64,000 nt of DNA from Escherichia phage vB_EQ1, in the sequence record PQ516281; one strand, written 5' to 3'. Below are positions 1,866 through 3,284 of this stretch, piece by piece. The notes under the pieces are model-generated. The model was given only the letters and a program-made list of their open reading frames with translations, made no database searches and was not told the DNA's origin. Within the stretch, counting starts at the first letter, position 1, and the number at the start of each line of letters is the position of its first letter. Position numbers and translations under genes: made by a program.

Positions 1866-3284
1866 TTATGGATATGTATAGATGATACCAGTTTCCAAAG
1901 CAGTTTTATGGATGATGTATCCATTACGTGATTCTTGAACATCAACTTCTGGATAGTCTTTCATCATCTTCTGAAGCGTATAACGATGCAAGTAATACTT
2001 ACTATCTGGATCTTCAGTTTTCCAATCTTTACCTTCTTCAGTCATTTTTTGGATTTCATCCATAACCCACCAACCGCACCAGATGTAAGCTGAAGTACGA
2101 TGTGGAAGAGGATGAACATAAGGTAATTCACCTTCTGGTTCTGGAGCAACTTTATCGGTTACCTGAACTTGACCTTCTGCTGTAATAGTTTTGCTATCAT
2201 AATCAGTAGCAGTAACAGATGCAGTAACTTCAATAGTTTGACTTCCAATAGATGAGGTATCAACGGTATATACATTAGTTGACCCTTCTACAGGAGAAGA
2301 ATCTTTCTTCCATGAATACTCAATTTGCGCTTCTTCTGGAGCATCAGTGACATTAGCGGTAAATGTAGCCGAAGCATCTTGCTGAACGTTAATAGAAGGA
2401 GGAGTCAATGTAACCCGTGGATTCATTGTCTTCTTATTAACCGTTAATGATACTTCATTCGAAGTAACTTCCTTTGCATCATAATCTGTCGCGGTTACTT
2501 GGGCTACACATTTAATTCTTTTTACTCCACTTGTAGTCGGAGTATAGCTAAATGTAGAGTTAGTTTCTCCACCAACCTGTGAATCATCTACATACCACTG
2601 ATACGTAGCAGACGCTCCAACCGGTTGAGAAGCTAAGGCAGCAGTAAATTGAACTGGGGTTCCAATTACTCCGGCTGAAGGACTATTGGGAGTTACTGCC
2701 AACGTAGTTGTCTGTGTCTTTTTATTAACAGTCAGTGACACTTCATTAGAAGTAACGCTTAGTGCGTCATAATCTGTTGCGGTTACTTGAGCCACACACT
2801 TAATTCTTTTTACCCCGCTTTCGGCAGGAGTGTAATTGAACGTAGCGTTAGTTGCTTCGCCAACAGGAGAATCGTCTACATACCATTGATAAGTAGCATT
2901 TGCGCCTGATGGCTGCGAAGCTAAAGCGGCGGTAAATTCAATAGCTGTTCCTATTACTCCAGCGTCAGGGCTATTGGGAGTTACTGCTAAGGTAGTCATT
3001 TGTGTCTTGTTTTGAACTGTGATAGTTGTAGAAGCTTCTGCTGTTTCAGCTTCAGCTTCTGGAACTGTATTTGTTGCAACTACTTTAATAGTCTTTTGAC
3101 CGGCAGGTCCTTTTAGTACATAACTAAAAGTTGCTTCAGATCCATCTTGTGGAACATCATCCACAGACCAAGCATATGTAATAGTTCCGCCCCCAGTTTC
3201 ACCACTGGGTGTAGCAGTAAACTGCTTAGTCTCATCTATAACTCCAGTAGGTGTTTTAGGAGTTATATCAACTGTAAAAGCCAT
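1866..3284 (-). CDS. hoc: Hoc, highly immunogenic outer capsid protein, with four Ig-like domains plus capsid-binding C-terminus
   Basis: Repeated Ig-like units (…TYQWYVDD…VKRIKCVAQVTATDYD…) and T4-Hoc-like C-terminus; T4 order hoc-inh. Confidence 0.85.
   Translation of the reverse strand: MAFTVDITPKTPTGVIDETKQFTATPSGETGGGTITYAWSVDDVPQDGSEATFSYVLKGPAGQKTIKVVATNTVPEAEAETAEASTTITVQNKTQMTTLAVTPNSPDAGVIGTAIEFTAALASQPSGANATYQWYVDDSPVGEATNATFNYTPAESGVKRIKCVAQVTATDYDALSVTSNEVSLTVNKKTQTTTLAVTPNSPSAGVIGTPVQFTAALASQPVGASATYQWYVDDSQVGGETNSTFSYTPTTSGVKRIKCVAQVTATDYDAKEVTSNEVSLTVNKKTMNPRVTLTPPSINVQQDASATFTANVTDAPEEAQIEYSWKKDSSPVEGSTNVYTVDTSSIGSQTIEVTASVTATDYDSKTITAEGQVQVTDKVAPEPEGELPYVHPLPHRTSAYIWCGWWVMDEIQKMTEEGKDWKTEDPDSKYYLHRYTLQKMMKDYPEVDVQESRNGYIIHKTALETGIIYTYP
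2431..3006 (-). repeat. Tandem duplication of an Ig-like domain coding unit within hoc (two copies of about 288 nt)
   Basis: Copies 2431-2718 and 2719-3006 align at high nucleotide identity; encode near-identical 96-aa domains. Confidence 0.7.

Follow-up and report, generated by a model that had tools for sequence, protein, structure and literature searches.

Hoc is a highly immunogenic outer capsid (head decoration) protein, and in its T4-type form one molecule sits at the centre of each gp23 hexamer of the mature capsid. Through it the phage adheres to mucus and to the surface of bacteria, and on T4 capsids it serves as the main platform for display. [quoted passage not shown] Five of its residues, Y293, H295, R300, W309 and W310, are conserved capsid contacts (PMC10385173). 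The number of Ig-like domains varies among homologues and can be as high as ten (Fokine et al., PMC10385173), and attachment to the E. coli surface has been reported for Hoc domains 2 and 3 (PMC10385173). In phage PNJ-9, whose published Hoc is without domain 3, domain 2 binds MUC2 fucose through S183-L184-T185 (PMC11853027).

We analysed the hoc gene of Escherichia phage vB_EQ1 in a stretch of 64,000 nucleotides (record PQ516281; hereafter the window). A preliminary description of this DNA had proposed that its Hoc carries an additional Ig-like domain created by a recent tandem duplication, or that the two copies are undergoing homogenisation. Compared with T4 there is indeed one domain more, a tandem copy of domain 2; the two copies are old.

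Architecture of the window Hoc

The product of the window gene matches solved T4 Hoc (5vf3_Z) with E = 3e-222 and PHROG 1149, 'Hoc-like head decoration', at 1e-138, and the gene is 98.0% identical in nucleotide sequence to hoc of phage moskry. The gene, its domains and the adjoining features are as follows.

1866..3284, minus strand: hoc coding sequence, 472 amino acids plus stop; head decoration protein, four-Ig form (from the list of open reading frames)
3006..3284, minus strand: Ig-like domain 1, residues 1-93; aligns to T4 Hoc 1-93; modelled as a beta-sandwich, pLDDT 85-94
2718..3005, minus strand: domain-2 unit A, residues 94-189; first copy, 'extra' relative to T4 (repeat finders, type-A cluster)
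2430..2717, minus strand: domain-2 unit B, residues 190-285; second copy; aligns to T4 Hoc 94-189 and falls in the type-B cluster with T4, RB3 and JS09
2142..2429, minus strand: Ig-like domain 3, residues 286-381; aligns to T4 Hoc 190-285; Pfam Ig_3 and I-set at 289-373, modelled beta domain at 288-376
1869..2141, minus strand: C-terminal capsid-binding domain, residues 382-472; nearly identical to T4 Hoc 286-376
1835..1861, minus strand: intrinsic-terminator-like hairpin GGGGC-TTCG-GCCCC with a T-rich run, directly 3' of the hoc stop codon (read from the sequence)
3294-3962: inh, on one side of hoc
4013-5527: uvsW, on the inh side of hoc

Pfam matches (PKD, Ig_2, Ig_3 and I-set), an AlphaFold2 model and the alignment to T4 Hoc agree on four Ig-like domains plus a T4-type capsid-binding domain, confirming the domain count given in the preliminary description. 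The model, built from 30 sequences, contains four beta-sandwich domains at approximately 1-92, 94-188, 190-284 and 288-376 with pLDDT mostly 85-94, followed by a C-terminal alpha/beta domain of low confidence (pLDDT 29-70). A Foldseek search with it returned multi-Ig chains, including four-Ig chains and RB49 Hoc (3shs). Alignment to T4 Hoc falls into two blocks, residues 1-109 matching T4 1-109 and residues 185-472 matching T4 89-376, and thus reveals a clean insertion of exactly one 96-residue domain. Residues 377-472 are almost identical to T4 Hoc 281-376. The counterparts of the T4 capsid contacts are Y389, H391, R396, W405 and W406, which are invariant in our alignment. The window protein therefore has the C-terminal anchor homology with its contact residues, the N-terminal Ig string and the conserved genomic position of a T4-type Hoc.

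On the side of hoc away from inh lie two small conserved open reading frames (24.3/24.2-like) and then rnlB. The order inh, hoc, 24.3/24.2-like frames, rnlB, read from open reading frames and PHROG matches, is that of the moskry, AV110, T4 and AR1 records. Over window positions 3300-28000 identity is 100.0% to MRostami-2023e, 99.1% to AV110 and 98.7% to moskry, all three of them Mosigvirus. The hairpin at 1835..1861 is a putative intrinsic terminator; the ATK47 and fPS-65 records annotate a terminator at the homologous position.

A separate observation concerns rnlB (RNA ligase 2; window 205-1204, minus strand), which is split into open reading frames of 211 and 81 amino acids by one extra C in a C-run near 571-575 (CCCC versus CCC), while the moskry gene is intact at 999 nt. 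The additional C may reflect a true frameshift, or else an error in sequencing the homopolymer.

The tandem repeat of domain 2

Two adjacent 288-nt units were found in hoc by three independent methods. A repeat search of the window returned copies at 2427-2714 and 2715-3002 with 76% identity, and TRF reported 2427-3008 with period 288, 2.0 copies, 77% matches and a score of 698. Comparing hoc with itself, as the preliminary description had suggested, gave a clear peak of 76.4% at offset 288, the next best offset reaching 42%. The repeat had been placed at 2431-2718 and 2719-3006; the coordinates in codon and domain phase are 2430-2717 and 2718-3005, a difference of 1 nt that is immaterial because the repeat is tandem.

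The two units are in frame and share 76.4% of nucleotides and 83% of amino acids. The amino-acid value lies well above the 33-40% that the Ig domains of T4 Hoc share with each other, the comparison on which the earlier proposal was to stand or fall, and above the 28-42% of the other Ig-domain pairs in the window Hoc. At the nucleotide level the other window domain pairs reach at most 46% in ungapped, in-register comparison; ungapped nucleotide and amino-acid values are the fair comparison here, as gapped global alignment inflates the nucleotide identity of unrelated Ig domains (0.55-0.66). Chance similarity of the units was rejected, as codon-shuffled copies were 29.6 +/- 2.5% identical, with a maximum of 37.5% in 2000 shuffles.

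The similarity of the units thus stands, and only the wording 'highly similar' at the nucleotide level was too strong. Of the 288 positions, 68 differ between the copies, and 45 of those are third codon positions; the longest identical stretch is 17 nt. The 16 amino-acid differences are found in loops as well as strands. With this longest run and 76% identity overall, the array does not have the form of a slippage-prone (contingency-type) repeat.

Unit types and arrays among T-even phages

We aligned with MAFFT 167 protein units, taken from the best 120 protein clusters of 895 matches, and 43 DNA units from 26 genomes. Traces of other types within a unit were read at DNA-level sites, since reading them at the protein level, with only three strict A/B diagnostic residues, was too coarse. 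The units cluster into three types common to many phages: type A, which heads every array that contains it, type B, to which the T4 unit belongs, and type C, which is last. Median dS between types is 1.05 for A-B, 0.74 for A-C and 0.56 for B-C, and DNA-level typing shows that some units are fine-scale mosaics of types. The multi-unit arrays were distributed as follows.

A-B: 26 clusters
A-C: 3 clusters
B-C: 1 cluster
A-B-B: 2 clusters
A-B-C: 6 clusters

None of these 38 arrays departs from the sequence A, then B, then C, and the A-B array of the window is the commonest two-unit form. Single-unit genes are of type A in 45 clusters and of type B in 35, and fPS-65 has a single C unit. The number of Ig domains does vary among related phages, which have one to four domain-2 units, corresponding to proteins of 376, 472, 568 and 664 amino acids. 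The 568-residue Hoc of UGKSEcP1, YUEEL01 and T4_ev151 has three units, and the longest T-even-type array in this analysis is A-B-B-C in the 664-residue Hoc of slur03 (LN881728.1, coding sequence 201-2195 of the extracted locus).

A distant Hoc lineage (approximately 50% amino-acid identity) was encountered in two IMG/VR contigs, L008 (hoc at 1501-2916) and L007 (1501-2919). The L008 gene, encoding 471 amino acids, has a tandem repeat with a period of 282 nt and 76.7% identity that begins at about nucleotide 546 of the gene; the L007 gene has one at period 285 with 60% identity. Relatives of these proteins with 377 amino acids are without the tandem repeat, which looks like a domain duplication that arose independently elsewhere in the gene.

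We considered how types A and B came to lie side by side. They might have diverged as single-domain hoc alleles in different lineages, to be joined by one unequal crossover during mixed infection, after which the A-B gene would have spread by recombination. In its favour, genes with one unit are common for each type; hoc alleles form mosaics that cross genera, the dS values of domain 1, domain 3 and the C-terminal part varying independently; and a short homology, AAGACACA, present at both the domain 1/A and the A/B junctions, could support such a crossover. However, the conserved A-B-C order of the 38 arrays is as simply explained by one ancestral array that has undergone order-preserving deletions, and the single units of AV110 and JS09, A-like at the 5' end and B-like thereafter, look like products of array deletion rather than ancestors. 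We regard this origin as unlikely, though the data used are compatible with it as well as with an ancient duplication in situ, and it would leave the main conclusion as it is: the units are old and not homogenised.

Age of the two copies

That the units are old is evident from their synonymous divergence. Units A and B of the window differ (Nei-Gojobori) by dS 1.27 and dN 0.122, a dN/dS of 0.10 that reflects purifying selection on both units. Same-type units of different phages have a median dS of 0.35-0.37, and the non-repeat parts of window and T4 hoc differ by dS 0.27-0.33, so that A/B synonymous divergence is three to four times that of orthologous units or of non-repeat hoc against T4, a ratio that is only approximate because dS above 1 is near saturation. 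Domains 1 and 3 of window hoc differ from those of moskry and AV110 by dS of at most 0.03.

The relationships of the individual units lead to the same result. The nearest relative of each window unit is the unit in the same position in moskry: unit A is 97.2% identical to moskry unit 1 and unit B is 99.3% identical to moskry unit 2, whereas each is only 76% identical to its own neighbour. Across phages, units group by type and position, not by genome, and copies of one genome were not seen as closest relatives. Units A and B are no more alike within a genome (identity 0.762) than between genomes (0.765), which gives no sign of concerted evolution. None of the 38 multi-unit protein clusters has copies more than 85% identical in amino acids, and unit A of the window carries the B/C state at just 1 of 36 type-informative sites.

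These observations contradict the part of the preliminary description that concerned age. A tandem duplication within the lineage of this phage, or gene conversion that keeps the copies similar, could account for the elevated A/B identity relative to the other Hoc Ig-domain pairs, and patches of another type, such as 'AAA' in unit 2 of T4_ev151 and unit 2 of slur03, indicate that limited exchange between types does happen somewhere. Both are nevertheless at odds with a dS of 1.27 between copies when the flanks of the nearest relatives differ by 0.03 and orthologous units by 0.35, with the closer match of both units to their moskry counterparts than to each other, with the 17-nt limit on identical runs, with the equal A-B identity within and between genomes and with the near absence of B/C states from unit A. 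Recent duplication and homogenisation were therefore ruled out by dS, unit clustering and the comparison of identity within and between genomes, and we consider either highly improbable. The split between units A and B is far older than that among the hoc alleles now found in Tequatrovirus and Mosigvirus phages.

Unit number in close relatives

Although the types are old, gain or loss of whole units among close relatives is recent. AV110 is 99.1% identical to the window over the adjacent 24.7 kb and its hoc flanks have dS of at most 0.03, yet its hoc, otherwise the same allele, has a single domain-2 unit. The first 36 nt of this unit resemble type A, and the approximately 250 nt that follow are identical to window unit B; a deletion model with the crossover at unit offset 36-39 leaves 14 of 1131 positions mismatched. 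Two routes would explain this, both by recombination: an A/B event that removed a unit from AV110, or acquisition of unit A by the window lineage. With A/B dS above 1, a duplication of B after AV110 and the window parted is excluded as the source of unit A. Of the two routes, loss in AV110 is favoured, with the limit that 5' diagnostic sites are few and are polymorphic in some B-type units.

The closest public record, OQ031495.1 (Escherichia phage MRostami-2023e; flagged UNVERIFIED, partial), when its positions 57000-61000 are compared with window 1-3638, has a hoc from which precisely the 288 nt of unit A are missing and which includes stretches of 62 and 8 Ns. Either the copy number really differs, or the unit was lost through reference-guided assembly. 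The record also has a bearing on the window itself: being 100.0% identical over 3300-28000 and different at hoc, it implies that one of the two assemblies may be wrong there.

That the second unit of the window was introduced or retained by misassembly of the repeat was rejected and is extremely improbable, as the copies differ at so many of their 288 positions that the repeat is easy to assemble, the same A-B architecture recurs with an intact frame in dozens of independently sequenced phages, no single reference has units identical to those of the window (moskry, 97.2% and 99.3%), and OQ031495.1, with its UNVERIFIED flag and its Ns, is the more suspect assembly.

Distribution of the two-unit form

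We searched with the window hoc and obtained matches in 658 phage records. In an evenly spaced sample of these, limited to whole-query rows, 19 of 51 genes had the two-unit form (1419-1425 nt) and 32 of 51 the 1131-nt form of T4, indicating that about a third of T-even hoc genes are of the two-unit form. The best 120 protein clusters gave a comparable picture by length, with 82 at 376-377, 30 at 468-472 and 8 at 568-570 amino acids. Four-Ig Hoc proteins are also found in AR1 (AP011113), HP3, teqskov and slur02; one protein cluster with 72 member sequences (P0009) is 97% identical in amino acids to the window Hoc; and the moskry record (MN850651) already carries a repeat_region feature over both units. 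As the doubling is ancient and common to about a third of related phages, the window hoc is an ordinary gene variant that was already on record, with nothing new in its architecture.

Two of the matching records are unusual. MG010123.1, labelled 'Staphylococcus phage SAJK-IND' (32 kb), contains a full T-even four-Ig hoc at 90.5% identity and is probably mislabelled or contaminated. In Yersinia phage PST (KF208315.1) the hoc region of 1420 nt has a frameshift near its 5' end, probably a sequencing error or the mark of a pseudogene, and the record annotates hoc only from nucleotide 591 of the locus.

When we searched the literature for an explicit description of a T-even Hoc domain-2 duplication, we found only variable Ig number and the PNJ-9 domain-3 deletion, and the ordered A/B/C cassette organisation of hoc was not found described in the literature searched.

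Discussion

We are confident in the following account of the locus. The window hoc carries a real in-frame tandem repeat of domain 2, whose units belong to old A and B types maintained by purifying selection; arrays of this kind would change by order-preserving unequal recombination, and the fibre would be the longer for it. Unequal homologous recombination between units, or between the hoc alleles of co-infecting phages, would alter array length while keeping unit order, so that whole 96-residue domains are added or removed in frame. The extra domain would lengthen the fibre by one Ig module and would provide a second, diverged copy of a domain that reportedly binds mucin fucose and the E. 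coli surface; an SLT motif is present in both window copies, A and B.

A wider reading may also be entertained, tentatively and at somewhat less than even confidence. hoc would then be regarded as a set of three ancient domain-2 paralogues arranged as cassettes in a fixed order, present in one to four copies, all under purifying selection and reshuffled by unequal recombination that keeps their order, even between genomes more than 99% identical, by which fibre length and the set of glycan-binding domains are tuned quickly at the population level. The descriptive part of this reading is what we observe among the T-even phages, while the adaptive tuning is speculation.

Little is at stake for the window itself, which has a common and already deposited Hoc variant. 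What is of more general use, as a modest side result of modest value, is the A/B/C cassette organisation together with the differences in unit number between near-identical phages. Natural T-even phages differ by whole domain-2 modules, in one to four ordered A/B/C units, and near-identical phages can differ by exactly one Hoc module. The window phage or moskry, compared with AV110, therefore offers isogenic-like pairs for examining module effects on mucin binding and therapeutic persistence. A note of caution is that reference-guided assemblies can drop a hoc unit.

The window Hoc has its nearest counterparts in the four-Ig proteins of moskry, AR1, HP3, teqskov, slur02 and the P0009 cluster, which share its A-B architecture and length and show point differences only. 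The five-Ig proteins of UGKSEcP1 and YUEEL01 (568 amino acids) and the six-Ig protein of slur03 (664 amino acids) are built from the same A/B/C units in other numbers. In PNJ-9 and BYEP01, Hoc has 283 residues and consists of domain 1, domain 2 and the anchor, domain 3 being absent; PNJ-9 Hoc is thus shortened by loss of domain 3, not by loss of a domain-2 unit. The ten-Ig Hoc of Serratia phage Muldoon (PMC10385173) is only distantly related and follows the same principle of a conserved anchor with variable Ig modules. T4 Hoc itself resembles the window protein in its colinear alignment, its gene position next to uvsW and its capsid-contact residues; its single domain 2 has its counterpart in unit B, and the window Hoc differs by an additional 96-residue type-A unit between domain 1 and the T4-type domain 2.
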